Origin: Heptranchias perlo
Taxonomy: Eukaryota
DNA: 64,000 nucleotides
NCBI RefSeq assembly: GCF_035084215.1
Contig: NC_090329.1
Location: 100,378,001-100,442,000 of the forward strand
Direction of reading: 5' to 3'
A program made the translations under genes and the position numbers. The notes under the pieces are model-generated. The model did no database searches and was not told the DNA's origin. It saw only the letters and a list, made by a program, of their open reading frames with translations. Of this stretch, positions 1 through 61,010 are shown piece after piece (positions within the stretch are counted from its first letter, which is position 1; each line of letters opens with the position of its first letter).

Positions 1-247
1 CTACCCCTCTGTGGGACAACATTTCTTTAACAAGGGGCATGGTAGCCCCAATTTTATCCAAGGAGAAACTTAACACTGGCAGGAGGGTGTACTTATAATG
101 CAGCAAGTTTGCATAGGCAGTTTCCATTATAACTGCAGACATAGGAAATTATAATGGGAAAAGTTGACAGGAAGTGGCTACAAATGTAAGTTTTTAACAA
201 GTTATTGGTATGTAGATAATATTAAATCAAATATCAAATGACAGAAT

Positions 248-347
248 GAAGTTCTGATGAAAGGTCATCGACCTGAAACCTTAACTCTGTTTCTCTCTCC
301 ACAGATGCTACCTGACTTGCTGAGTGTTTCCAGCATTTTCTGTCTTT
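248..347 (+). mobile_element. ~100-bp non-coding Penelope-derived element carrying a hammerhead motif, flanked by 10-bp direct repeat ATGACAGAAT
   Basis: ATGACAGAAT lies at 238-247 and 348-357. The internal sequence recurs at ~27500-27636, ~43700-43830, 47271-47360 and, degenerate, at ~51195-51310. Confidence 0.75.
250..286 (+). ncRNA. minimal type I hammerhead ribozyme motif
   Basis: AGTT-CTGATGA-A-AGGTC(atc)GACCT-GAA-ACCTT-AACT gives a CUGANGA/GAAA core, a 5-bp helix II and a 4-bp helix I. The helix III palindrome AACGTT seen in the 43.8-kb copy is mutated here to AACCTT. Confidence 0.7.
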
Positions 348-449
348 ATGACAGAATATATGACTTTAAAATGGGGACTGAGTAACATTTTCGTGGCTTG
401 ACCCAATTATCCCCTCCCTCTAAGCTAGCTTCATTTGAAGACTACGTTT

Positions 450-1516
450 TGGGGTGAATGTTCATGTGGGCTATTCCATCTGGCAGGGTGGGGGGGGGAG
501 GTGGGCGTTAAGAGCCTGCCGCCCGCCCGATGGCATTGATACGAAACTGGAGCCATTTTCATGGTTGGGCCTCATTTGAATAATCTCGACAAGCTCTGGT
601 GCTGAACCATCACTGGCGGGCAGCTCGCCAATGGCGGGGGGGAGGAGGGGGGCACGGGAAATCTGGTGGCTCTTCTGTGGGGGGGGGGGGATTCAATCCA
701 GATGGGGTGGGGTGGGGTGGGGTGGGGTAGTGAGGACTGCCCGGGGGGGGGGGAGGGGGGGAGATTTTTGTGGGGCCAGGATGGAGCATTAATGCTCCTC
801 CTGATCTACAAAAAACATTTTAAAAATTTTTGGCTTTTTTTTTTCAACCGTTGCGGTCCCTTTTAAAGGGCGAAGGTTAGGCTGCTCAGCTCCAAGTGTC
901 AATGGGTGCAGCAGGAATAGCAGGGTACCTGAAAATTGCACCAGGGTCCTATATATGTCACAGGACTCCAATTTGTATAGCTTAATATGTAAGGGTGATC
1001 TAATTGAGGTGTTTAAGATGATTAAAGGAGTTGATAGGGTAGATAGAGAAACTATTTCCTCTATTGGGGGAGTCCAGAACAAGGGGGCATAATCTTAAAG
1101 TTAGAGCTAGGCCGCTCAAGGGTGATGTCAGAAAACACTTCTTCACACAAAGGGTAATGGAAATCTGGAACTCTCTCCCCCGAAAAGCTGTCGAGGTTGG
1201 GGAGGGTCAATTGAAAATTTCAAAACTGAGATTGATAGATTTTTGTTAGGCAAGGGTATTAAGAGCTATGGAACCAAGGCGGGTAGATGGATTTAAGATA
1301 CAGATCAGCCATGAGGTAATTGAATGGTGGGACAAGCTTGAGGGGCTGAATGGCCTACTCATGTCCCTATGTTCCTATTAATGAGGCAACCGCCCGAAAC
1401 AGGACCAGATGGAAATGGTGGCGGGCGGATCGGCAGTGGGAAGGGGGTGTAGAGCACTGCCATTTTCCTTGTGCTGCTGCCCTGTTCCCACCCGAAAACA
1501 GAGAAAAAAATTGGCC
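450..1516. mobile_element. degenerate GC-rich MITE-like (probably Harbinger-derived) remnant split by a CR1 fragment
   Basis: Ends resemble the GGGN...AATT termini of other MITEs in the window, the body has poly-G runs, and it is interrupted at ~985-1376. Confidence 0.4.
985..1376 (+). mobile_element. CR1 LINE 3' fragment
   Basis: Encodes the CR1 ORF2 C-terminus (GDLIEVFK, SRTRGHNLK, FFTQRVMEIWNSLP), followed by a 3' UTR ending in ctatgttcct. Confidence 0.9.
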
Positions 1517-2330
1517 TCTTGTTCTTGATTCCTCACATGCAACACCAGTGGGAGATTGTCTGCATGTGATTGCAGAAAGCAGTCTTCTGAAGAAAATTTT
1601 TATTACACTTGTGAGAATGGTCTTTATAACTCAAACATGATTTTTTAAAATTTGTAAGTTATTAGGTCATCCTGATTTGTAATAAAATTAGTATATAGTT
1701 CTCCAAGCCAGCGTCCTATATTTAGACAAGTTGTTTTCTTGGCTGCTTAAAGGTGCAAGTAGTAAAATCTTAACCATTGGATGGGCTTTTTCGCAAGGGA
1801 TAGCTGAACAAGGCAGTTAAATGAAAATATCCAGCATTTAGACAAGTTGATCCTGCACAGCTGTGCATGATTTATATTTAATGGTGACCTTTTGTCCTCA
1901 AATGCGACAGATCGCCCGTGTGATACAAATGAGTTGGCTGTGCTTTACCTCCCACATTAGCCTACAATGTGGAGATCTGGGATATTAGAGCTTGCTAAGA
2001 ATGAAATCTCCACACTGTACTTAGCCAGTTAGATGCCACAGGGTAGAACTCTGGATCGGTAAAGTTCATGCACGTATGTATAAGACACTCCTGTTACATT
2101 CCTCCGTGTGCTATTTTTACGCAGGCGCTAACCCATTCACAATAAGCACCTTAACACTTGGGTAACAATAGTCCACACAGGAATGTAGCGTGCATTAAGT
2201 GTTCCAATGTGAACTTCAAGTCTTGGAAGTTTTGACCTCATATTTTGCATATGTGTGCACATCTGTAGGATTTCCTGTATTGTACAGAAAAGACAATCCA
2301 AACAAAATTTGCACAGAGAACAATAATGAT

Positions 2331-17445: not shown

Positions 17446-19364
17446 AGATCAGGGAAAAATAGTAAAAAGTTCAAATTAAAGGCGCTTTATCGCATGTAAC
17501 AAAGGTAATGCAATAATCGTGGGAGACTTTAATCTTCATATAGACTGGGCAAACCAAATTGGCAAAAGTAGTTTGGAGGATGAGTTCATGGAATGTATTC
17601 AAGATAGTTTCCTAGAACAATATGTCGAGGAACCAACCAGGGAACAGGCTAGTTTAGATCTTATCTTGTGTAATGAGACAAGATTAAGTAGTAATCTCAT
17701 AGTAAGGGATCCTCTGGGGAAGAGTGATGATAATATAATAGAATTTCACATTGAGTTCGAGAGTGACATCTTAAACTTAAACAAAGCCAATTACATAGGT
17801 ATGAGGGGCAACTTGGCTAAGGTAGATTGGGAAATTAGATTAAAAGGTATGACGGTAGATAAGCAATGGTGAACATTTAAAGAAATACTTCATAATTCTC
17901 AACGAATATACATTCCATTGAGGAATAAAAACTCCATGGGAAAAGTGATCCATCCGTGGCAACCTAAAGAAGTTAAGAATATTATTAGGTTAAAAGAAGA
18001 GGCTTATAATGTTGCCAAGAAGAGTAGTAAGTCTGAGGATGGGAGAGTTTTAGAAACTAGCAAAGGATGACCAAAAAATTGATAAAGAAGGAGAAAATAG
18101 AATGAGAGTAAACTAGTAAGAAATATGAAAACAGATTGTAAGAGCTTCTACAACTATGTAAAAAGGAAGAGAGCAGCAAAATTAAATGTGAGTCCCTTGG
18201 AGGCAGAGATAGGAGAAATTATAATGTGGAATAAGGAAATGGCAGAGACATTTTAAACAAATATTTTGTGTCTGTCTTCATAGTGGAAGACACAAAAAAC
18301 ATACCAGAAAAGTGGGGAACCAAGGGTCTAACAAGAGTGAGGAACTTAAAGTAAATTAATATTAGTAAAGAAAAAGTACTGGAGAAATTAATGGGACTAA
18401 AATCCGACAAATCCCCTGGACCTGATGGGCTACATCCTAGGGTTCGTAAAGAGGTGGCTGCAGAGATAGTGGATGCACTGGTTGTGATCTTCCAAAATTC
18501 CCTAGTTTCTAGAATGGTTCCAATGGGTTGGAAGGTAGCAAATGTAATCCTGCTATTCAAGAAAGGAGGGAGAAAGAAATCAGGGAATTACAGGCCAGTT
18601 AGTCTGTTATCAGTAGTCGGGAAAATGCTGGAATCCATTATTAAGGATATGGTAACAGGGCACTTAGAAAATCAAAATATGATTAGGCAGAGTCAACATG
18701 GTTTTATGAAAGGGGAAACATGTTTGACAAATCTACTGGAGTTTTTTGAGGATGTAACTGGCAGGGTAGATAAAGGGGAACCAGTGGATGTTGTATATTT
18801 GGATTTTCAAAAGGCATTCGATAAGGTGCCACATAAAAGATTGTTACACAAGATAAGGGTTCATGGGGCTGAGGGTAATATATTAACATGGATAGAGGAT
18901 TGGTTAATGGACAGAAAATAGAGAGTAGGGATAAACGAGTCATTTTCAGGTTGGCAGGCTGTAACTAGTGGGGTGCCGCAAGGATCAGTACTATCAGGGC
19001 CTCAGCTATTTACAATCTATATTAATGACTTAGATGAAGGGACTGAGTGTAATGTATCCAAGTTTGCTGACAATATAAAGCTAGGTGGGAAAGACGACAC
19101 AAAGGGCACGATTTTAAAATGCCGGTGGGATGGTAGTGAGGTGGGGGGGGGGGTCAATGGGTGCGCGGGTAGCCTGAGTACTAAAACCTTACCGTTCCCC
19201 ACGAGATTGCGATTTAATTGGTGGCCATTAACCTTATTTCCGAATTTGCCGTCCGAAAGCTGCACAGTGGGTGGACTGTGCACCCGCATGGCCTGCTGTC
19301 AGCTGGAGCGTCTGGATTTAAAGGGCCAGTGCACCAATGGCTTTTGCTGGAGCAAGGAGACAGA

Positions 19365-21279
19365 ATGGAGCAGCAGAGGGGCAAGCCAGCTCCAAGATTC
19401 AGCGACACCTCACTTGAGGTGCTGCTGGCCGGGATGAGGAGGAGGAGGGAACAATTCTACCCGGCCGACCGGAGGAAGTGCCCTGCCTCTGGCACCTAGA
19501 AGGCCTGGCTCGAGGTGGCAGAGGAGGTCACCAGCAGCAGCAACATCTCCTGCACTTGGGTCCAGTGCAGGAAGCGTTTCAATGACCTAACTAGGTCAGC
19601 AAAAGTGAGTACACTTACTGATTCTCCTACATTCGTGTTGCACATCACTGCCCCCGACCCCCCCCCCCACCCCAACTCATTCTGCACTGCCAAGACTACT
19701 CCATCATATCACTCCTCACACCCACTTAAGGCTCATCCTCAACTTACCTTCACTTCCTGAGCACTTCCTCACCTCCCCATTTGTGACCCCACCACTGCCA
19801 CTCACCCCAATCCTCATCCAATGTGATGTCTCTCTTTTATACTCACCCTCTGATGCACCTCTTTCACTGTCAGCCTCACCCTAAGCAATGCATTCATCGG
19901 TTGGCCACTTCACCATCACTCACTCACTCGTCTGTACTTTCTCCCCTGCTAGGAGAAGAGAGCGCAAAATGCACACGAGAGGGCGAGGACTGGAGGGGGG
20001 TCACAACAAATAGTGGTCCTCACAGAGGTGGAGGAGGAGGCCCTGGAGATCAGCTGCACCCTCGAGTGCCTGTCCGTCAGGGACGCTGAGACTGGCACCC
20101 CACAAACGTCAGGTGACACAACTTTAACATTCATCACACACAACATGAATTGATGTTAACAATGATTGGCATGTTGAACACCTCAGTATGCTCATCGCAA
20201 CATGATATATCTGTGACGATGCTTAATATTGCCTTCTGTTCTCTTCCAGGCCCTTCAACGACTGCAATGATGGAAGAGGGCGATTCCTCAGAGGAGCTCC
20301 CGGCCTCTGAGGGCGCACCATCACATCTTAGCGAGCCATCCACCAGTGCAGATACTCACACCTCGGTGGGTTCTATTAGTCAGTTAGTTGGGTTGGCACC
20401 TGGTGAGTCACCACACACAAGTGAGCACGAGCAGACACTGGTGTCGGGGCAGCTGTGGAGAGTACGCATCAGTGGGATCATTCCTCTTCAGGCTCTGCTC
20501 AGCTGGACACAGATGCTGAACCCCGGGGGCCATCCTTTAAAAGGAGAATGATAGAGGGGCAGCAGCACATTTGCGAGGTACTGGAACAGATGGCACACAC
20601 ACTCTCCACAATAGTGGAGAGGATGGAGGAGTCCAACTCCTGCATTAATGGAATGGTGGCCCAGGTACGTGAGGGAATCTCTGAGATAGTGTCACAGGGA
20701 TATGAGCAAATGTATGAGATAGTGTCGCACGTAAATGCAAGAATGTCTGAGATACTGTTGCAGTTAAGTGCGGAAATGTCTGTGATGGAGAGAAGGCTAG
20801 CCTCCATTGAGCTTCAAGCACGGCTCACAAATGAGTCCATTCAGGCCCTGACAACAGCCGTTCAGACTCGGGGTGAACAACATTCTGCAGCCTTAACCAG
20901 GCAGACAGAAACTTTACAACAAGGTTTCCAAGGCTTCACACATGTCCTCCAAACTGTTGTCCAGCAGGGTGGAAGGAGTGATGTAGGCCTGGTCCAGGAG
21001 AGGGATGATGGTGAAAAGGGACGTGGAAGTGGGGACGCCACTCAAAGCGCTCCCACATCTCACCCATTGCCCCCCTCTCAACCAGTACCTGCAATGCTGC
21101 CTCCTCTCCAGATGGCCGAGTCTGCCCCTGCACAGGTGCATGTGGAGCAGAGTTTGGCAGGGCCCTTATGGGCTCCAAACCCCAGAGGGCGTAGGCCAAA
21201 TGCATCTAGTCATTCAGGGCATGAACCTGCCACTACCTCTGCTGCAGCCACAGGGGAGGCACCACAAAGTACCAGGTAG
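19365..21279 (+). pseudogene. Harbinger accessory Myb/SANT-like gene, three predicted exons (19365-19604, 19953-20112, 20250-21279)
   Basis: Translates [21 protein letters not shown]...WLEVAEEV...TWVQCRKRFNDL. Introns are GT-AG with pyrimidine tracts. There is a stop at 19497-19499, and exon 3 has a frameshift. Confidence 0.82.
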
Positions 21280-27499: not shown

Positions 27500-27636
27500 T
27501 GAAATACTGCGGATGCTGGAAATCTGGCATCAAAACAGAAAATGCTGGAAATACTCAGCAAGTCAGGCAGCATCTGTGGAGAAAGAAACAGAGTTTACGG
27601 TTCAGTTCTGACGAAAGGTCATCGACCTGAAACATT
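27500..27636. mobile_element. head-to-head (inverted) fragment of the Penelope-derived hammerhead element
   Basis: 27500-27603 is the element body in minus orientation. It is immediately followed by plus-strand AGTT-CTGACGA-A-AGGTCatcGACCT-GAAACATT (27604-27636). Confidence 0.7.
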
Positions 27637-43382: not shown

Positions 43383-43771
43383 AAATCTCTTTCTGATCAA
43401 ATATCTAAACATAACTCAGTACAATATAAACAAATGTTTTTGGAGAATTATTAATCAGAATCTTGCATAGTTTGCCAACTATGTAATTTTGGATCTCAAC
43501 CCTCCTTCCCCCACGAACACTGCCATATATATAGAAGTCATATTCCGTTTGTTAACTGAAGCAAAAGAACTGCAATTGTAAATAGCAGACTTGCTCTGAT
43601 CCTCTCATTGATCTACACTTTGACTGAGGGATATCTTCGGTAGGCAAGAGTTATACAGCGTTACATTTGAATAGGGACATAACAAACAATCAGATCTATA
43701 CTAAAATAGAAACAGAAAATACTGGAAACACTTGGCAGGTCAGGCAGCATCTGTGGAGAGAGGAAGGTAGG

Positions 43772-43805
43772 GTTAACGTTTCAGTCGATGACCTCTCATC
43801 AGAAC
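43772..43805 (-). ncRNA. minimal hammerhead ribozyme motif within a Penelope-derived short element (~43700-43830)
   Basis: The minus strand reads GTT-CTGATGA-G-AGGTCatcGACT-GAA-ACGTT-AAC, with the AACGTT palindrome intact. Confidence 0.7.
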
Positions 43806-44608
43806 TGGGAGATGTTACAGATGAATCAGATAGACAATAATTAACTGCAAAATTTCATTTAAACTAAGCAGGTAATGGCAAAAGAATCACATTGAAAGGC
43901 GATCAATCCCCAATCAGACAGAAATTCAGTCGTGTCCCTGAACAAATATAACAAGTCAGTAAAGGTAAGGAGCACAATGAGGATTGGCTAAAATGCAGAA
44001 TCAACAAGAAAGAAGGAAAGAGCTTGTATTTATCCAGTGCCTTATCACATCTCTCAGAAATGTCCCAAAACGCTCGAGTTGATAAAGACAAGCTGAGCAA
44101 GTTGAGAGAATTTGGCCTGATCTAGAACTTGGCATTAGCATAGTTGGCTTGATGCTAATTTCAGTTATTTGAAATTTCAAGTCCTTTGAGCCCATTTATT
44201 ATGGCAGGACAGTGGAAACTGTTGTTATGGGGAACTTGCATAATGTGGGAGTTGCTGGAAAATATGAATGTCTAGGATAGTCACAGGTGTAAGGAGTGCC
44301 TCCAGGTGGACTTGCTCGAGCTCAAGGTTATTGAGTCTGAGGAACAGTTGGTCGTACTCAGCACTATATAGGAGAGCACATTCCAAGACATGGTCAGCCT
44401 ACAGCTAGAGTGGAATTGTGAGGAAGGGACTTGCTGGGATAACATAAAGGGGGCAGAGACCCAGCGAAACTGGCCTCCGCTCCTTTTTCCTGACCTTTAC
44501 ATCTGGGAAATGGACATTCCCAGCCGAATGACCTCCTTCTACTCCAGGTTCTACAATTCTACTTGAAGTGCAATCACTGTTGTTTTGTATGGAAAAGGTA
44601 TAGACAGT

Positions 44609-47270: not shown

Positions 47271-47360
47271 GGTCATCGACCTGAAACGTGAACTCTGTTT
47301 CCTTCTCCACAGATGCTGCCTCACTTGCTGAGTATTTCCAGCATTTTCTGTTTTTATTTG
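47271..47360 (+). mobile_element. truncated copy of the Penelope-derived hammerhead element (lacks CUGANGA)
   Basis: Reads GGTCatcGACCT-GAAACGTGAAC followed by the same body as 248-347. Confidence 0.7.
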
Positions 47361-50214
47361 AGTAATTTTAACTTTTGGCGATTTTCGTATCCATTTTCAT
47401 CTTAATTCGAATATTGTTTTACATTACATATCAATGCAAGATGTCATTGTTGTATTTGAAGTGTAGAAGAGCAAAAGAGGACTATTCAGAGGAGTGTTGA
47501 TACTGATAAAACTGAGGAAGACAAGAAAGGCTGCAATGTGAGAGAGAGGAAGCTAGAGATGAGAGATGGATCATCTATCAGACAAGATTTTTTCTTGTAT
47601 CCTTACCAACACTGTCAGAGAGGTTATCAAAAAGTCACCACTGCTGTGGGACCAGTATTTAAGTCTTGGACAGATTTGGACTTTACAGAGAGCTATGAGT
47701 TGTTGAAGGAAAAAAAAGTATTTGGCAAAAAAGAGGCAGCGAGGAAATGCAAGACTTCCATTTAAGGTCAGAGGATATAGGAAGATCTAAAATGTCAGTC
47801 AATAAGAACAAAAAGGAGAGGAAGGTGGAGAGGCAGAGGCATAGATGGTTGATAGCATGAACACCAATGGTGGGGCGAACAGAGGCGGGATGCACAAGAG
47901 ACTGGAATCAGATGAACACATGACGGTAATTGTTGGTTACACTTGTGAAGAACACGGAGTAGTTGTTGGCATTTACTTCCGCCGGGGTTCTCCTGATCGT
48001 CCACCGTAATTTCAGTGGAAGAGTCATGGGGCGGAATTTGCTCTAAGTGGCGAATGAACAGCACCAGCTGTTTGTTAGACTTGCACTTGCCCACAGACTT
48101 TCCATGGGCTCTTGCACAGCGAGTTCCTATCATAAGGAGCTCTATACAGGACATCTGTGCAGAGTTTGGAATCATACGAGAAAAGTCCGATCACATGGGA
48201 CAATAAACAGTGAAGATAAGACATAGCTACCAATTCTACCAGGAAGGTGAGTAGGGTCTTCAAATGACCTCTTAAATATAGAAAGTTAGTTTAATTGTAA
48301 ATAAACTTTTAAAAACTTCTTATAAACAGTGGGATCCCGAGTGGAAAGGCTTTTTTTTTCCCACACAGGCCTCTTTAAGCACTTCCAGGACTCTTGATGT
48401 CACATAAATTTGAAAAAGATGTAGAAAAATCTGACACCTGGCTCTCACAGACTTTTTGAATATGTCTCTGACAGCTAAAAAGTTCCCTCCGGATGAATCC
48501 TGGCTTCATTAAATATGCGCGAACTTTAAATGATGACAAGACAGGCTCCTCACGTCACTTCAGACAAGTCCTAACTTTTTCTGGCGAGTTTAGTCCATAT
48601 CTACGACGCTAGTACAGGAGCTTCACGCCGTTCAATTCATTTGAATGGGGAGCCAGACGGCGAGATGCCGTTTTCGTGCAGCTTATGGAGGGGCGATGCA
48701 CTTCGGACAGCAACTTCCCGATTTCCGCGTTTAACTGCACATGTGCGCTCGTCGGAAGCTGCTGTCCAATTTGCACATAAATAACGGTGAGCGCTGTTGG
48801 CCTCATCATTATTCTCACAGTAAAATCCAGCCCATTGAAACTCCAGAGGAATGGTGTAAACGGTGTTTATGCAAATTCTCTGGGTTACCGCGGACCTCTG
48901 GCTGTAGTTACGCCGGACGATTGGGAGAACCCCTGCAGAAACTCAATCCCTGAAGAATTGAAAGAAATAAAAGCATTGTCGCCCCATTTCAGGGCGTAAA
49001 GGTATATCTACACTATTTCTACAGGGGTTCTGTCAACCTACTGCCAGAATTGACAGCAGGGAATCAGGAGAACTCTGCAGAAGTTCAGTGATTCAGCCAT
49101 TAGACTGCAAGAGGACTGGAAAATCAACAGCAAGAGAGTGGATAGGACTGGATAATGAGCAAAGGAGATGATTAATATAGGAAAGAACAGAGCAGGAGAG
49201 AGGATGGAGCCTTGGAGCCAAGAAAAAAAGTCAGAGAATGGATCATCAATGACAGCACAGATCCACAGGGCAGATAGAAAAATTTGAGAAGAAACTAGAT
49301 TGCCAAATGCATAGTTTTAGTGAGAAGCCACACAACGATAACTTTCTGAAAACTGCATGGTGCCAGGCATTATGCAAAGCTTTGGAAAAGATAAGACGAG
49401 GACAGATGATTCACCAAAGTATTCAAGAGTAGAGTTCCAGAGATGTGCGGAGGAGAGTGCACCAACTGTACTCAGCTCAACTGCATAATGCTTTAAAGAC
49501 TTTTATCACAGTGCTACTGAAGTTACATTGATGTGCAGTGCTTCTCCAATAACTGGGAGGCCGCATGGAAGGAGAGGCTATAATTTAAACTCAAGTCATC
49601 TCGAACCCTGAGAAGATGGGAACATAGGAACAGGAGTAGGCCATTCAGATGTTTCACCTTTTAGGATGAATTTGAAGAAATTTGCATTATTGTTTTCTTT
49701 AACAAAGTTCTGCAATGTTATTTTTTAAATCTATCATAGACCACATGTATGACTTTCATTCAGGGTTTTCTAACGTAGTTCTTCCAATTTAAAATATATT
49801 GATATTTGTAAAACTGCTTCAACAAGAATAAATAATTGACCTTTCCTACATTACAACAGTAACTGCACTTCAAAAAAGCACTTCATTGACTGTGAAGCAC
49901 TTTGGGATGTCCTAAGGTCGTGAATGGTGCTATATAAATGCAAGTCTTTCTTTCTTTCTTTGGAGAACCGGGACAGCTCTCACCTTCATCGGGACTCTGT
50001 TTTGCTCAATTACCACCACCAACATACGATGTGCTACAGCGCATTGTGTTGGGTAAAGGAATCATTACCTTGGTAGATTTGAATAATTACAACTAACGTC
50101 TGATTGGTTTTCTAAAGCTACTGCCAGTGCTAAATTAAGATGCTGATTTGTGAGAGTTGCAGCTTCTCACTTGAATGAAAGGTGTGGTGGGCACTGACTC
50201 TCTGCATGCCTTCT

Positions 50215-51169: not shown

Positions 51170-52106
51170 TGAGATTCTAGCAGGAGATCCTAGCAGAAGG
51201 GCATAGCCCAAAACAATGACCCATTTGCTCTCTCCACGGGTGTTGGATGTCCTGCTGTGTGCCTCCAGCATTTTCTGTTTTTGGTTCAAATTTCCTGCAT
51301 TTGTATTTTTTTGTAATCTGCTCAATGCATTTTCCTAGTGTATTTTACATTACCTGTGAGTCCTACACTTCTATTTACCAGGCGGGCATGGTGTCAGTGA
51401 TATCTATATTCTCCCCTAAGGACAGCCCAGAAGTTGGTGATTGTTGATGCTCCTAACACTGAGGGCTCATTGTGACTGAAGTGGCAAATACTCCATATGT
51501 TCCTTCATCGGTATCAGAAGGCTTCAGCAATTGAGTCACTATGTGACACTGCTCTTGGAGGCAGAGCCACTTATACAGGACCTGTTGCTGGCACAGAACT
51601 CATTCTGACATCTCTGTCACTCACATGTATCTCAGCTACTCCTGTGCTCAGAGGCTGTTGATGTTGGAGAACATTTCCTCAGGACATCCACAGATTTGTC
51701 AAGAGACAAGACAGTGTGCGGTGCTGAGGTTCCTAAGTCTTTCCATGAAAAGGCCTCAACCCTTCTTTGGCTCCTCATCTTATACCTGCTAGCCCCTGTT
51801 CAGACCCTATCTCTTCTGCCCTTTCTCACCACCATGCCATGCGATATCCAGTGCTGCTCATTATCTTTAAGTCCCTAAATGCTAGTTTATGGGCTGGTTC
51901 TACTGTGGACCCTGTTAATGAGCAACACATTTTTCTAAAGTGACATAAGTAGACATTATTTGTAGGGTCCCTATACTTTTATGGCATGCAAAATACAAAT
52001 ATGATGAGATCCCTTTTTTAATAAACACCATTTTCGTTAGTGCACATTTATACAATTGTAAACAATTTTACAACACCAAGTTATAGTCCAGCAATTTTAT
52101 TTTAAA

Positions 52107-52145
52107 TTCACAAGCTTTCGGAGGCTACCTCCTTCCTCAGGTGAA
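52107..52145 (-). ncRNA. minimal type I hammerhead ribozyme in the 3' pLTR (sense to the ORF)
   Basis: Reads TTCAC-CTGAGGA-A-GGAGG(tag)CCTCC-GAA-AGCTT-GTGAA, with AATAAA just downstream. Confidence 0.85.
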
Positions 52146-52380
52146 CGATGTGGAAATGAAATCCTCGAAATGAAGTCGCATTTATAATTCACAGAACAAT
52201 GCTTGGTGAGTACAGACAGTTTTTTCAACTGCCCGTTGCCAAGGCAATCAGTGTGCAGACAGACAGGTGTTACCTGCCAGGTCTCACAGAATATACAAAT
52301 CACCAAAAAAAACAACAAACAAAAAAAAAACAGAGATAGAGAGGTAGAAACATAGAAAAGACAGCAACTGACCCGTTATA

Positions 52381-54374
52381 TTAAAAACAGATAACATTTG
52401 TTCGCTGGTGGGGTAACGTGTAGCGTGACATGAACCCAAGATCCTGGTTGAGGCCGTCCTCATGGGTGCGGAACTTGGCAATCAATTTCTGCTCGACGAT
52501 TTTGCGTTGTCGTGTGTCTCGAAGGCCGCCTTGGAGTACGCTTATCCGAAGGTCGGTGGCTGAATGTCCTTGACTGCTGAAGTGTTCCCCGACTGGGAGG
52601 GAACCCTCCTGTTTGGCGATTGTTGCGCGGTGTCCGTTCATCCGTTGTCGCAGTGTCTGCATGGTCTCGCCAATGTACCATGCTCTGGGGCATCCTTTCC
52701 TGCAACGTATGAGGTAGACAACGTTGGCCGAGTCACAGGAGTATGAACCATGCACCTGGTGGGTGGTGTCCTCTCGTGTGATGGTGGTATCTGTGTCGAT
52801 GATCTGGCATGTCTTGCAGAGGTTACCGCGGCAGGGTTGTGTGGTGTCGTGGATGCTGTTCTCTTGAAAGCTAGGTAATTTGCTGCGAACGATGGTCTGT
52901 TTGAGGTTGGGTGGCTGTTTAAAGGCGAGTAGTGGAGGTGTGGGGATGGCCATAGCGAGGTGTTCGTCGTCATTGATGACATGTTGAAGGCTGCGGAGAA
53001 CATGGCGTAGTTTCTCCGCTCCGGGGAAGTACTGGACGACAAAGGGTACTCTGTTGGTTGCGTCCCGTGTTAGTCTCCTGAGGAGGTCTATGCGATTTTT
53101 TGCTGTGGCCCGTCGGAACTGTCGATCGATGAGTTGAGCGTCATATCCCGTTCTTACTAGGGCGTCTTTCAGCGTCTGTAGGTGTCCATCGCGTTCCTCC
53201 TCGTCTGAGCAGACCCTGTGTATTCGCAGGGCCTGTCCATAGGGGATGGCCTCTTTGACGTGGTTAGGGTGGAAGCTGGAAAAGTGGAGCATCGTGAGGT
53301 TGTCCGTGGGCTTGCGGTAGAGTGAGGTGCTGAGATGCCCGTCTTTGATGGAGATTCGTGTGTCCAAGAAAGGAACTGATTCTGAGGAGTAGTCCATGGT
53401 GAGCTTGATGGTGGGATGGAACTTGTTGATGTTATCGTGTAGTCTCTTCAGTGATTCTTCGCCGTGGGTCCATAGAAAGAAAATGTCATCGATGTATCTG
53501 GTGTATAGTGTTGGTTGGAGGTCTTGTGCAGTGAAGAAGTCGTGCTCGAACTTGTGCATGAAAATGTTGGCGTATTGGGGTGCGAATTTGGTCCCCATGG
53601 CTGTTCCGTGTGTTTGGGTAAAGAACTGATTATTGAAGGTGAAGACATTGTGATCCAGGATGAAGCGGATGAGTTGTAGGATGGCGTCCGGAGATTGGCT
53701 GTTGTTGGTGTTGAGTATTGATGCTGTCGCAGCGATGCCGTCATCGTGGGGGATACTGGTGTAGAGTGCTGAGACGTCCATCGTGGTGAGAAGTGTTCCT
53801 GGTTCAACTGGTCCGTGGGTACTGAGTTTTTGTAGGAAGTCTGTAGTGTCGCGACAGAAGCTGGGGGTTCCCTGTATGATGGGTTTCAGGATGCCCTCGA
53901 TGTATCCAGAGAGGTTCTCACACAGGGTTCCGTTGCCTGATACAATAGGACGTCCGGGTGTGTTGGCTTTGTGTATCTTTGGGAGGCAGTAGAAGTCTCC
54001 CACGCGGGGAGTACGTGGGATGAGAGTGCGTAGGATGCTTTGAAGGTCTGGATCGAAGGTCTTGATCAGTTTGTTGAGCTGGTGGGTGTGTTCTTTGGTC
54101 GGGTCTGTGGGTAACCGTCTGTAGTGTTCCTGGTTGTCCAGTTGTCGGTATGCTTCTTTGCAATAGTCCGTTCTGTTCTGTATGACTATGGCTCCTCCTT
54201 TGTCCGCTGGTTTGATGACGATGTTGCGGTTGGTCTTGAGAGCGTTGATGGCGTTGCGTTGTGCTCGGGTGACATTCTGGACTGTCTTCTGAGTGCGGCT
54301 GATGAATCTGGCATTGACGCATTTCCTGACAGCTTGAGCATACATGTCCAGCTGAGGGCAGCGACCCTCACCTG
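52381..54374 (-). CDS. Penelope-like reverse transcriptase + GIY-YIG endonuclease (N-terminally truncated, no internal stops)
   Basis: Motifs KPADKG, LPKIHK..PGRPIVS, MDVSALYTSI, GTAMG...ANIFM, RYIDD, Cys linker PCRGNLCKTC and NVVYLIRC...YIGET..LRQRMNGH. The start at 54393 in the ORF track lies inside the inverted pLTR and is not native. Confidence 0.93.
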
Positions 54375-54514
54375 GAGACCTGGCAGGTAACACCTGTCTG
54401 TCTGCACACTGATTGCCTTGGCAACGGGCAGTTGAAAAAACTGTCTGTACTCACCAAGCATTGTTCTGTGAATTATAAATGCGACTTCATTTCGAGGATT
54501 TCATTTCCACATCG

Positions 54515-54553
54515 TTCACCTGAGGAAGGAGGTAGCCTCCGAAAGCTTGTGAA
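54515..54553 (+). ncRNA. identical hammerhead ribozyme in the inverted pLTR
   Basis: Helix I is TTCAC/GTGAA, the core is CTGAGGA...GAAA, helix II is GGAGG/CCTCC, and palindromic AAGCTT replaces helix III. Cleavage is predicted after 54548. Confidence 0.85.
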
Positions 54554-56351
54554 TTTAAAATAAAATTGCTGGACTATAACTTGGTGTTGTAAAATTGTTT
54601 ACAATTGTCAACCCCAGTCCATCACCGGCATCGCCACATCACATTTATACAGTTAGATCTATGTCACTACAGGACAAAATATGATTTGCAATGATAAACT
54701 ATGTTATTCAAATATGTGCAAACAATGCCTGGTGAAGGCTGTGGGAGTTAGAGTTCTATTTCTGCATCAACCTTAATGGCTGTCCTCAGCTCATGGTAGT
54801 TTTTCCTAACATTTTTCTAGGACACCCTTGGGTTTCTGAGCTGGCCTGTGATTCCCGAAAAGGTCATCCTGCTTTTCATGCATCCCAGACAAGAATGGTG
54901 AGATTACGGTGAGAAAGTGAGGGTGTCCAACCAGTATGAACAGCCATTGCTTAAGAAGTCTGACTTCCTCACTGCACAGCTGTATCAATGGCCTGGTCAG
55001 AGATACTGGTGATTAAATAGTCTGGAAAAGATGATTAATGCAGTTAAATGCAGCTTGGCTGCTTTCTGAAATTATGTGATACACGGTTCGTACTGGAAGA
55101 AACGCTGATGCACCTTTGGTTTGGTGAATCATTGATATTCATCAAGAGAAACAGGTAAACTTCAATAATTATTTCTAAATGGGGAAAATATAAATATTCG
55201 TGCATTAGATTTTTTTTTGTCCTGTTTGTGGAAATGTCTGCAATGCCAGTTAAACAATTAGATGGAATGTTACCAGCTTGGTGTGGTGTTTGGAGTCAGT
55301 TCTTGGATGAATTTTACACTTGTTGGCAGAATAAAACTGGTAATGGTTGAATTCTATGCTGTGTGTTTTGTTACACAGGATATGCACAGCTGACACTTTT
55401 TTGTAAGGTGTTTCACTGTTGGGGGGGACTGTCCTTCGAATGACGTGAGAAACTGAAGAGGCCCTCCCTACAGTGCATGTGTGTAAACGCACAAAGCATG
55501 TTAAACAAGGTTAAAGAGCTGCAGGCAAAATTAGCCACATGGAAATATGATGTTGTGGTGATAACGGAGACCTGGCTCAAAAAAAGGGCAGGATTGGGTA
55601 CTAAATATTCCTGGATACAAGGTGTTCAGGAAAGATAGGGAAGGAAAGAAAGGAGGTGGGGTGACAGTATTGATTAAGGAGAATATTGCAGTGCTGGAGA
55701 GAAAGGATGTCCTTGAGGGGTCAAGGACAGAATCTATTTGGTTAGAATTAAGAAACAATAGAAGTGCCGTTACACTACTGGGTGTATTCTATAGGCCACC
55801 AACTAGTGGGAAGGCGATAGAGGAACAAATTTGCAGGGAAATTACAGAGAGATGCAAAAACCATAGAGTAATGATAACTGGGACTTCAACTATCCCAATA
55901 TAGACTGGATAACAATAATAATATAAAGGGCAAAGAGGGGGAGGAATTTTTGAAGTGTGTTCAGGAGAATTTTCTCGACCAGTATGTTTCCGGCCCAACG
56001 AGGAAGGAGGCATTGCTGGACTTGGTTCTAGGGAATGAGCTGGGCAAAGTGGAGCAAGTGTCAGTGGGGGAACATTTAGGGAATAGTGATCATAGTATCA
56101 TAAGTTTTACAATAGCTATGGAAAAGGATATGGACCACTCTAAAGTAAAAATACTCAAATGGAGGAGGGCCAATTTCGGTGGGATGAGAACTGATCTGAC
56201 CCTGGTAAATTGGAATCAAGGATTGGAAGGCAAAACTGTAATTGAACAACTTTAAGGCGGAGATGGTTCGGGTACAGTCTAGGTACATTCCCACGAGGGG
56301 GAAAGGTAGGGCAACTAAAGCCAGAGCTCCCTGGATGACAAAAGAGATACA

Positions 56352-58528: not shown

Positions 58529-61010
58529 CATAGAATCATAGAATCATAGAAAATTTATGGGACAGAAGGAGGCCATTCAGCCCATTGTGTCCACGCTGGC
58601 TGAGAAACGAGCCATCCAGCCTAATCCCACTTCCCCGCATTTGGTCCATAGCCCTGCAGGTCACTGCTCTTCAGGTCTACATCCAGGTATTTTTAAAATG
58701 AGTTGAGGGTTTCTGCCTCTACCACCCTCTCAGGCAGTGAGTTCCAGACCCCCACCACCATCTGGGTGAAAACATGTTTCCTCATTTCCGCTCTAATCCT
58801 TCTACCAATTACTTTAAATCAATGCCCCCCTGGTTATTGACCCCTCTGCTAAGGGAAATAGGTCCTTCCTACTCACTCTATCTAGGCCCCTCATCATTTT
58901 GTACACCTCAATCAAATCACCCCTCAGCCTCCTCTGTTCCAAGGAAAACAAACCCAGCCTATCCAATCTGTCATCATAGCTAAAATTCTCCAGTCCTGGC
59001 AACATCCTTGTAAATCTCCTCTGCACCCTCTCTCGTGCAATTACATCCTTGCTGTAATGTGGTGACCAGAACTGTGCACAGTACTCAAGCTGTGGCCTAA
59101 CTAGTGTTTTATACAGTTCCAGCATAACATCCCTGCTTTTATATTCTATGCCTTGGCTAATAAAGGAAAGCATTCCATATGCCTTCTTAACCACCTTATC
59201 TACCTGTCCTGCTACCTTCAGGGATCTGTGGACATGCACTCCAAGGTCCCTCACTTTCTTTACACCTCTCATTATCCTCCCATTTATTGTATATTCCCTT
59301 GCCTTGTTTGCTCTCCCCAAATGCATTATCTCACACTTCTCCAGATTGAACTCCATTTGCCACTCTTCTGCCCATCTGACCAGTCCATTGATATCTTCCT
59401 GCAGTCTACAGCTTTCCTCCTCACTATCAACCACACAGCCTATCTTTGTGTCATCCACAAATCTCTTAATTATGCCCCCTACGTTTAAGTCCAAATCGTT
59501 AATGAATACCACAAAAAGCAAAGGACCTAGTACCGAGCCCTGCAGCACCTAAGCTTTCCGTAGTATTGAGTTCCCGGTGTCTATCATAAGCTTTCTTTTT
59601 CTGCCTTATCTTACGCTGAGTGCTTCTTGACATCCAGGGGGCTCTAGATTTGGCAGCCCCTCCGTTTTTCTTTGTGGGAACATGTTTACCCTGAACCCAT
59701 TGAATCACCCCCTTGAATGCCTCCTACTGCTCTGACACTGATTTACCTTCAAGTAGCTGTTTCCAGTTTACTTCTGCCAAATCACTTCTCAGTTTAGTAA
59801 AATTGGCCTTTCCCCAATTGAAAGCTTTAACTCCTGCTCTGCTTTGTCCTTTTCCATAACTATGCTAAAACTAACTGTATTATGATCACTGCCACCGAAA
59901 TGCTCTCCCACTGCTACTTCTTCCTCCTGCCCCTCTTCATTTCCTGGAACTAAATCCAGAACTGCCCCCACTCTCGTTGGGCTTGCTATATACTGGCTAC
60001 AAAAATTCTCCTGTATGCAATTTAAGAATTCTGCGCCCTCTATACCATTCACACTGTTTGTATCCCAGTTAATATTAAGGTAGATGAAATCCCCTACTAT
60101 TTCTGCCCTATTGTTTTTGCACTTCTCAGAAATTTGCCTACATATTTGCTCCTCTATCTCGCTCTTACTGTTTGAGGGTCTATAGTACACTCCCAGTAGT
60201 GTGACTGCCCTTTTTTTGTACTTTAGCTCAACCCATAAGGCCTCATTTGATGCTCCTTCTAAAATATCATCCCTCCTCACAACTGTAATTGTTTCCTGAA
60301 CCAAAATTGCCACCCCTCCTCCTTTTTTATCCCCCTCTCTATCGCGTCTCAAAACCCTGTAACCAGGGACGTTGAGCTGCCAGTCCTGCACCTCTTTAAG
60401 ACATGTTTCTGTAATAGTTAAGATATCATACTACCACGTGTCTACCTATGACCTCAGCTCATCCGCCTTATTTCCTATACTCCTTGCTTTGAGGTAAATA
60501 CATTTAAGGACTGCCAAATTCCTCTGTTGTTTATTTTCTAACCTTCGTTCCCTCTGCCTTCCAGACTCACTCACTAATTTTCTGCCTTCCATTTCCAGTT
60601 CTGACTTTATTCCATCTGAATCCACAGTCAGGTTCCCATCCCCCTGCCAAGCTAGTTTAAACCCTCCCCGACAGCACGAGCAAACCTCCCCGCAAGGATA
60701 TTGGTCCCGGCCCTGTTGAGGTGCAACCTGTCCGGCTTGTACAGGTCCCACCTCCCCCAGAACCGGTCCCAATGCCCCAGGAATCTAAAGCCCTCCCCCT
60801 TGCACCACCTTTGCAGCCACGCATTCATCTGCTCTATCCTCCTATTTCTATTCTCACTGGCGCGTGGCACTGGGAGTAATCTGGAGATTACTACCTTTGA
60901 GGTCCTACTTTTTAATCTTTTTCCTAACTCCTTAAACTCTGCCTGCAGGACCTCATCCCTCTTTCTACCTCTGTCGTTGGTCCCGATATGGACCACGACC
61001 TCTGGCTGTT
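58529..61010 (-). mobile_element. CR1 LINE with partial ORF1 (SGNH esterase-like), APE, internally deleted RT and 3' tail
   Basis: 60652-60996 encodes VHIGTND...D.LHLN..G, 59789-60391 encodes APE, 58814-59548 encodes QGSVLGP..FVDDTK, and the (ATTCTATG)n tail is at 58529. Confidence 0.92.

Follow-up and report, generated by a model that had tools for sequence, protein, structure and literature searches.

At positions 248–347 of the window (the whole 64,000-nucleotide stretch of DNA analysed here) lies a 100-nt hammerhead-bearing unit which, judged by its sequence, is the terminal-repeat (pLTR) end of a second, high-copy Penelope-like family, with parents of about 3.15 kb that carry RT and GIY-YIG domains. 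The ends of its short copies are not those of random truncation: 5′ ends heap at +3/+4, in an initiator-like CCAGTT about 30 nt behind a TTAAAA motif, and 3′ ends heap at two tail sites. The unit was probably made from a cDNA primed internally about 100 nt from the RNA start, which would have run off at the RNA 5′ end (+3) and been joined to the cut target with a 10-nt duplication. In the unit numbering used throughout, +1 is window position 248. Family 1 is the family of the 248–347 insertion and family 2 that of the Penelope at window 52–54.7 kb.

The insertion is bounded by ATGACAGAAT at 238–247 and 348–357, identical over 10 nt, not extendable, and separated by exactly 100 nt, as the first-pass annotation of this DNA had described. 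A 10-mer repeat bounding a 100-nt stretch (within 5 nt of both ends) occurs at 154 of 21,200 window positions tested (0.7%). The parts of the insertion are:

238–247 (+): left target-site duplication (TSD), ATGACAGAAT, an exact repeat of 348–357
248–249 (+): 2-nt junction filler GA, where the parent has CC; differs from the family 1 majority
250–253 (+): element 5′ end (+3 A, the predicted transcription start) and 5′ strand of hammerhead helix I (AGTT); lies at the 5′-end peak, with a TTAAAA-like motif 29–30 nt upstream in long copies
254–282 (+): minimal type I hammerhead core, helix II and helix III stub, read from the sequence; C at 280 interrupts the palindrome; cleavage predicted after 282 (+35)
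283–286 (+): 3′ strand of helix I (AACT), pairing with 250–253; 92.6% of cells paired over 45 distinct copies
287–347 (+): 3′ part of the pLTR, ending in the first 3′-end cluster (+100 to +108, from 3′-end counts), a putative internal RT priming site; full-length parents continue through the tail into the body
348–357 (+): right TSD, ATGACAGAAT; the AT at its start is shared with parent +101/+102

Long family 1 copies have C at +1 in 65 of 70 cases and C at +2 in 67 of 70. The hammerhead consists of a 4-bp helix I (AGTT/AACT, 250–253/283–286), the core CTGATGA (254–260), one extra A, a 5-bp helix II (AGGTC/GACCT, 262–266/270–274) and GAAA (275–278), and shows all elements of the minimal type I motif (core CUGANGA/GAAA, helices I and II, an extra base before helix II; 89.9% of cells paired). 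The earlier reading of this motif and of the missing tRNA head agrees with the sequence, no tRNA gene being found in window 1–2000. The AACGTT-type palindrome also reported then is correct for family 1 and incorrect for this copy, which reads AACCTT in helix III, with C at 280; G is the majority at that position in contigs of all four sequencing runs examined and in genomic copies. The palindromic helix III for dimer formation is missing here, and the self-duplex of 277–282 is calculated at +3.5 kcal/mol as against −3.5 for the intact form (sampled locus L011). An Rfam scan of the window returned no hammerhead match and nothing at 248–347, its sole hit being mir-891 at 26 kb (E 0.31). Single-strand folding showed no unusual stability (z −1.29, 0.24 and −0.06; 0.24 is that of the 248–347 unit against shuffles), a phage collection held no match to the unit, and no contig from four DNA-type or unlabelled sequencing runs spans the insertion site, so that no empty allele was seen. 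The 248–347 copy is predicted to be inert because it has no upstream TATA-like motif, body sequence or partner ribozyme and its palindrome is broken. Both flanks (window 100–176 and 350–395) match another short repeat family in sequencing-run contigs, some of which join the 132–162 region to about 350; the unit may be lodged within an older small repeat.

Family 1 has 1,325 exact genome-wide matches to a 26-nt core and 3,238 to a 35-nt pattern from the unit's 3′ part, and related copies are plentiful in all four organisms whose sequencing runs were examined. The search for an RT-linked parent, suggested at first pass, succeeded: full-length copies with RT and GIY-YIG are arranged as pLTR, tail, body, ORF (RT, GIY-YIG) and pLTR, with periods of 3,129–3,218 nt (L233, L235, L236 and L238). 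The unit corresponds to the 3′ part of this pLTR. What had been taken for a tail of about 60 nt is pLTR sequence, the optional Penelope tail (+104 to +137) being absent from this copy. Upstream, family 1 copies run into a decayed ORF that is 22–44% identical to the family 2 protein. The parent ORFs are broken; their RVT_1 matches (E 9e-6 and 2e-5) fall below the Pfam cut-off, and the GIY-YIG-type segment (VYCIRC..YTGET) is recognised by alignment, with no Pfam match. A C-x4-C-x2-C motif (CERRRCNIC in L238) lies in the linker joining RT to EN and agrees with the Cx2-5CxxC of the Neptune clade; the same motif has been described for Nematis. The unit is colinear with the terminal repeat of an element with RT and C-terminal GIY-YIG, as in EN+ Penelope-like elements, and family 1 also shows the optional 30–40-nt tail and inverted upstream copies. 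Partial tandems, running from the upstream pLTR through the tail into the body, are present in L194, L201, L233, L235, L236 and L238, and the junction has 91 exact matches. Three splice-acceptor-like stretches (polypyrimidine plus CAG/TAG) were noticed in the pLTR and tail (window 283–305; parent +90 to +145), at about +57, +108 and +143; the first has TTAAC upstream and ATG behind. No nearby in-frame ATG for the parent ORF was seen in the family 1 copies read.

The window contains four further family 1 sequences:

27502–27636: head-to-head pair, interrupted after +35
43701–43822 (−): copy from −13
47271–47362 (+): copy from +16
51225–51313 (+): diverged copy from +43

Random sampling elsewhere (18 stretches of 10 kb, 180 kb in all) yielded one family 1 fragment; the window is richer. 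This sampling was too sparse, and copies were therefore collected by anchored sampling. Among them is a near-twin of the unit at L062:3277–3392 (−). It spans +3/+5 to +100 (about 100 nt), its 14-nt TSD starts with ATT, and it lies upstream of a long family 1 copy, at a distance of about 360 nt. The suggestion that the segment was inserted as a discrete unit is borne out, in the form of a TSD-flanked retroinsertion of a second Penelope lineage that recurs at this size. The distinction from the Penelope at 52–54 kb was likewise sound, since family 2 has the helices TTCAC/GTGAA and GGAGG/CCTCC and the palindrome AAGCTT.

Copy ends were read in two sets from one contig. Set A comprises 70 of the first 71 core matches among those listed (one skipped as a duplicate). 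Set B comprises 70 of the first 73 3′-anchored matches among those listed (three skipped as duplicates or partner arms), reduced to 68 by dropping two duplicates. The 5′ ends range from +41 to beyond −1,490, and copies extend past −300 into the ORF in 12 of 70 cases in set A and 18 of 68 in set B (30 of the 138 sampled). In set A, which is blind to ends inside the core, 29 of 70 5′ ends fall at +1 to +8 (5.2% per nt) as against 4 of 41 at −19 to 0 (0.5% per nt). Set B shows the same peak, with 9 of 48 copies at risk ending at +1 to +8 (2.3% per nt, compared with 0.9% downstream and 0.6% upstream). Genome-wide, copies with the exact 26-nt core lose the match to the parent at +3 in 186 of 1,023 cases, at +2 in 166 of 837 and at +1 in 106 of 671; for comparison, long copies differ from the parent at 3–5 of 70 per position over +1 to +3. 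Parent sequence upstream is retained in only 23 of the 166 copies that lose the match at +2. When 30 copies were anchored on the pLTR–body junction, 8 reached +8 or further, and 3 of those 8 start at +3.

The 3′ ends of the 138 copies form two clusters, 50 at +100 to +108 and 53 at +128 to +137 (where the reference ends), with 16 between them and 19 below +100. No pile-up was seen at the ribozyme cut site (+35/+36) in the sampled copies. Among non-inverted peak copies, 8 of 19 have TSDs; the figure is 1 of 7 for copies whose end falls within the ribozyme, 4 of 49 for long copies and 4 of 400 for mismatched controls. The enrichment in the peak class is 8/19 versus 5/56 for the others (Fisher p 0.003), and a wider search in long copies gave 6 of 67. 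Of the two points raised for checking at first pass, copy ends do cluster, and TSDs are enriched in the peak class. The alternative offered there, an extreme truncation of a second Penelope family, was right about the origin but left out of account that both ends are defined (5′ at the predicted transcription start, 3′ at two tail sites).

The retrozyme- or SINE-like candidacy raised at first pass was to fall if copy lengths ran on into a Penelope ORF or if the core were no better conserved than its surroundings, and both were found. On the tests made, the 248–347 unit is neither a retrozyme nor a SINE, because the lengths continue into the Penelope ORF and the short copies form no lineage of their own. 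Conservation among family 1 copies is 0.938 at core positions and 0.948 elsewhere (n=47). Comparison of 34 short with 73 long copies revealed no lineage split (permutation p 0.20 and 0.64), at low power over about 92 nt. Position +79 differs between short and long copies (p 0.02, uncorrected), and two more sites are confounded by set. A non-autonomous element that propagates itself, its master being the 100–135-nt unit mobilised in trans by Penelope protein, would account for the hundreds of copies that share both ends, for TSDs in 8 of 19 peak copies, and for short copies that differ at +79 and are slightly less diverged (0.083 versus 0.089 and 0.071 versus 0.099); the internal promoter described for Drosophila virilis Penelope (PMC2377424) would also suit it. 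We regard it as highly improbable. Besides the missing lineage split, the copies have no shared 5′ terminus or private segment; the 248–347 locus is a single unit with one ribozyme and no tandem array, and no head-to-tail array was noticed among the 138 sampled copies. The RT of a lizard element, as reported in PMC11167929, requires RNA some 55 nt downstream of where it primes, which a 100-nt unit does not have. The defined length and the TSDs of the short copies are SINE-like, whereas neither an own lineage with diagnostic variants nor a private head was found, at low power. Neat ends and TSDs do not in themselves make a single genomic hammerhead a retrozyme or a SINE.

The covariation in helices I and II that was to be looked for did not emerge within family 1: four compensatory cells were found, each in one copy, and 11 of 500 shuffles scored as high. 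Weak conservation and covariation of this kind is what copies that are dead should show. When family 1 is set beside family 2, the core is preserved, and both helices, though of different sequence, still pair, which argues that the hammerhead motif is under selection in the parent elements.

Helix I of family 1 begins at +3, and the same base is the A of the initiator-like CC-A-GTT. Of 68 long copies examined, 59 had a motif match, and in 50 a TTAAAA-type motif lies 29–30 nt upstream of that A, a spacing that counts as one family trait and not as many independent observations. The coincidence at +3 admits the reading that a long Penelope RNA is truncated at its 5′ end in the ordinary way, structure setting a hot spot for stops, either at the edge of helix I in the RNA or by fold-back of the cDNA end onto the helix I complement. 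Such a stop would fit the exact position of the peak at the first base of helix I, the otherwise continuous copy lengths, the joining of some inverted arms at +33 to +38, the reading AGAGTT in 11 of 20 G-AGTT copies, and the abundance of head-to-head pairs (17 of 39 peak copies are inverted or complex). Helix I has only 4 bp, however, folding of the unit is no more stable than that of shuffles (z 0.24), and TSDs are enriched in the peak class, none of which favours a structural stop. Family 2, in which the two candidate boundaries can be separated, also tells against it, and we consider this explanation unlikely, if by no means negligible.

Family 2 is young and very abundant, with 6,221 exact 30-mer matches genome-wide. 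Its features in the window are:

52001–54700: family 2 copy, a 689-codon open stretch with RT at 52381–54450 (−)
54520–54544 (+): hammerhead of the inverted upstream pLTR, which has a tail
52186/52157 (−): TATAAA/TCATTT pair

TATAAA stands 29 nt before the A of TCA-TTT. Counted upstream from the core, helix I begins at 5 nt and that A lies at 17 nt, a separation of 12 nt. We read 80 arms from the first 100 among those listed (20 unpaired copies, 20 short-gap pairs and 10 long-gap pairs), the arms of a pair not being independent. Fifty-five stop within 0–17 nt of the core on its upstream side, most often at 17 (10 arms); 2 stop at 18–40 (at 24 and 32), and 23 continue beyond 60. Only 2 of the 80 thus end in the 23 nt beyond the initiator A, and only 3 at the helix edge (4–6 nt). 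A second TCATTT nearer the TATA box was not an end site in these arms. A subfamily has TCATTT directly against helix I (L237:3383–3524, L220:1547–1640 and L040:2542–2732), and its few copies end there, 4–7 nt from the core on the upstream side; here too the ends go with the initiator-like motif. The 5′ boundary therefore follows the predicted start site and not the ribozyme, because the family 2 wall lies at the initiator-like A, 12 nt upstream of helix I. In head-to-head pairs (L309–L348), both arms are short in 20 of 20 short-gap pairs, a result partly built into the grouping, and both run past the wall in 10 of 10 long-gap pairs, a result that is not; this suggests one RNA class per family 2 head-to-head insertion.

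Some observations speak against the start-site reading. Many ends lie inside the predicted start site (20 of 68 in set B of family 1, at +10 to +41; 45 of 80 arms in family 2, at 0–16 nt), so that erosion or early stops must be added to the mechanism. Moreover, among 28 bystander family 1 copies only 3 of the 18 at risk, the window copy included, end at +1 to +8.

The base preceding the +3 A is G in 49 copies, A in 23 and T in 28 (hand count of the first 100 among the non-C copies listed; for G, p 2e-6 against 0.27); among the copies listed there is no G excess before +2 (14/100) or +4 (33/100). Capped 5′ ends of LINE-1 and SVA carry an untemplated G (PMC4859970), and the excess before +3 weakly suggests the trace of a copied cap. 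The signal is not clean, because fold-back copying onto +36 to +41 gives the same G: the 11 AGAGTT sequences among the 20 G-AGTT copies read are the reverse complement of +36 to +41, 7 of the 20 abut an inverted arm, and 2 have a TSD. The filler GA of the 248–347 copy fits neither a lone cap G nor fold-back, and no clear G excess was seen at the family 2 wall in the 80 arms. Two further candidate signals were rejected. A cap-derived G scar left by strand transfer in long copies (6 G, 3 A and 14 T in 23 copies changed at +2) is indistinguishable from mutation, and a G excess at +1 proved partly an alignment artefact, being 9 of 22 in ungapped copies and not seen genome-wide before CAG.

The same junction bases bear on splice capture, in which CTAAC-TTCTTC-CAG at −10 to +4 would be a 3′ splice site and short copies would stem from RNAs with another exon spliced onto +5. 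The ratio of G to A before AG (49:23 among the copies listed) is the opposite of that at exon ends (p 2e-8), although the acceptor-like sequence is indeed present in long copies and many short copies read G-TT or AG-TT at +4/+5. TSDs often end at +3 to +6, leaving no room for an exon; the 14 peak copies without a near TSD have no distant one within 1 kb; the single flank tested (L284) is unique in the genome; and no common first exon exists. The intron end of D. virilis Penelope maps to the 5′ end of helix I (PMC4209133), as splice capture would have it, but the family 2 wall is left unexplained, and we give this origin very little credence.

Returning to internal priming and run-off, the account builds on what was seen directly: the parent, the end clusters, the TSD enrichment and the absence of an own lineage. 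A parent with its TATA-like TTAAAA about 30 nt upstream of the initiator-like CC-A-GTT would be transcribed from +3. The GIY-YIG endonuclease would cut AT-rich DNA, and RT would start at +100 to +108 or at about +137, where the 3′ ends cluster; internal priming has been shown in vitro for another Penelope-like element (PMC11167929). The cDNA would terminate at the RNA 5′ end or a few bases inside it, as the 5′ cluster suggests, and would be joined to the target through 1–3 nt of microhomology or a short filler, such as are seen in TSD-bearing copies. RNA from +3 primed at these two sites would give cDNAs of 100 or 135 nt, and longer copies would come from RNAs started upstream, in tandems or by read-through. 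The many short copies would be explained if, as is likely, their shared start is where the element RNA begins. Start site, priming and run-off are what we infer from sequence. D. virilis Penelope has its start site about 120 nt upstream of helix I and a TATA-less promoter (PMC2377424, PMC4209133), so the TATA/initiator geometry is not universal.

More tentatively, and with somewhat less than even confidence, we propose that Penelope-like elements by default prime near their own transcript 5′ end. The commonest product would be a strong-stop-like cDNA, from tail site to cap, that integrates alone or as head-to-head pairs with one RNA class for both arms. Long copies would need tandem RNA started upstream or template transfer, and the hundreds to thousands of stubs per genome would map the transcription start of every family to the base, whether the family is living or dead.

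Truncated copies, tails, inverted pLTRs, single minimal hammerheads and putative pLTR TATA/initiator motifs have all been published for Penelope-like elements (PMC8557442, PMC3846280, PMC4209133, PMC6765202, PMC2377424), the putative TATA and initiator in a rotifer pLTR (PMC3846280). Family 1 itself may already be catalogued; what is new in the stub is that both its ends are defined. EN+ Penelope-like elements as presented in PMC8557442 and PMC3846280 share with family 1 a single ORF with RT and C-terminal GIY-YIG, partial tandems forming pLTRs, an optional 30–40-nt tail, head-to-head inverted copies, TSDs of 8–14 nt and many short copies. In those accounts, as far as their available text goes, truncation has no fixed 5′ boundary and the solo pLTRs of PMC3846280 lack TSDs, whereas the short copies of family 1 have a sharp 5′ wall at the predicted start site and are TSD-enriched. 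Minimal type I hammerheads of metazoan Penelope-like elements (PMC4209133) resemble this unit in their 4-bp helix I and the extra base before helix II. They have a palindromic 15.2–16.2 and are mostly single genomic copies, which the authors consider probably truncated elements; the 248–347 copy differs in its 5-bp helix II and broken palindrome, and copy ends are not mapped in the available text of that paper.

Poseidon of Anolis carolinensis (PMC11167929) likewise has two internal RT start sites bounding the tail and AT-rich (ATT) targets; ribozyme cleavage is not needed there, and cDNA length is set by the template 5′ end in vitro. It belongs to another clade, and the portion of the article available maps 3′ ends only and describes no short run-off insertions or start site. 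Animal non-LTR retrozymes (PMC7229834; bioRxiv 10.64898/2026.07.22.740005) are, according to the available text, similarly non-coding and pLTR-related, with a type I hammerhead, larger TSDs and some monomers. They are defined by tandem repeats with a ribozyme per unit and by circular RNA, whereas the 248–347 unit is single, colinear with a coding parent, and without an own lineage.

How Penelope-like elements form pseudo-LTRs, why they leave many tiny copies and why these occur as head-to-head pairs are questions still open in the field. A search of the open literature found no description of a fixed 5′ boundary at a start site. One testable account, predicting start sites to the base, would follow from combining the internal priming sites already published with the fixed boundary that two unrelated families of this genome show at a TATA/initiator-like site. 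Apart from the Penelope-like families, the window holds broken LINE-type ORFs, with RVT_1 at 18355–19437 (+) and 58814–59548 (−), and a LINE-type endonuclease (Exo_endo_phos_2) at 59789–60430 (−), within 58814–60430 (−).
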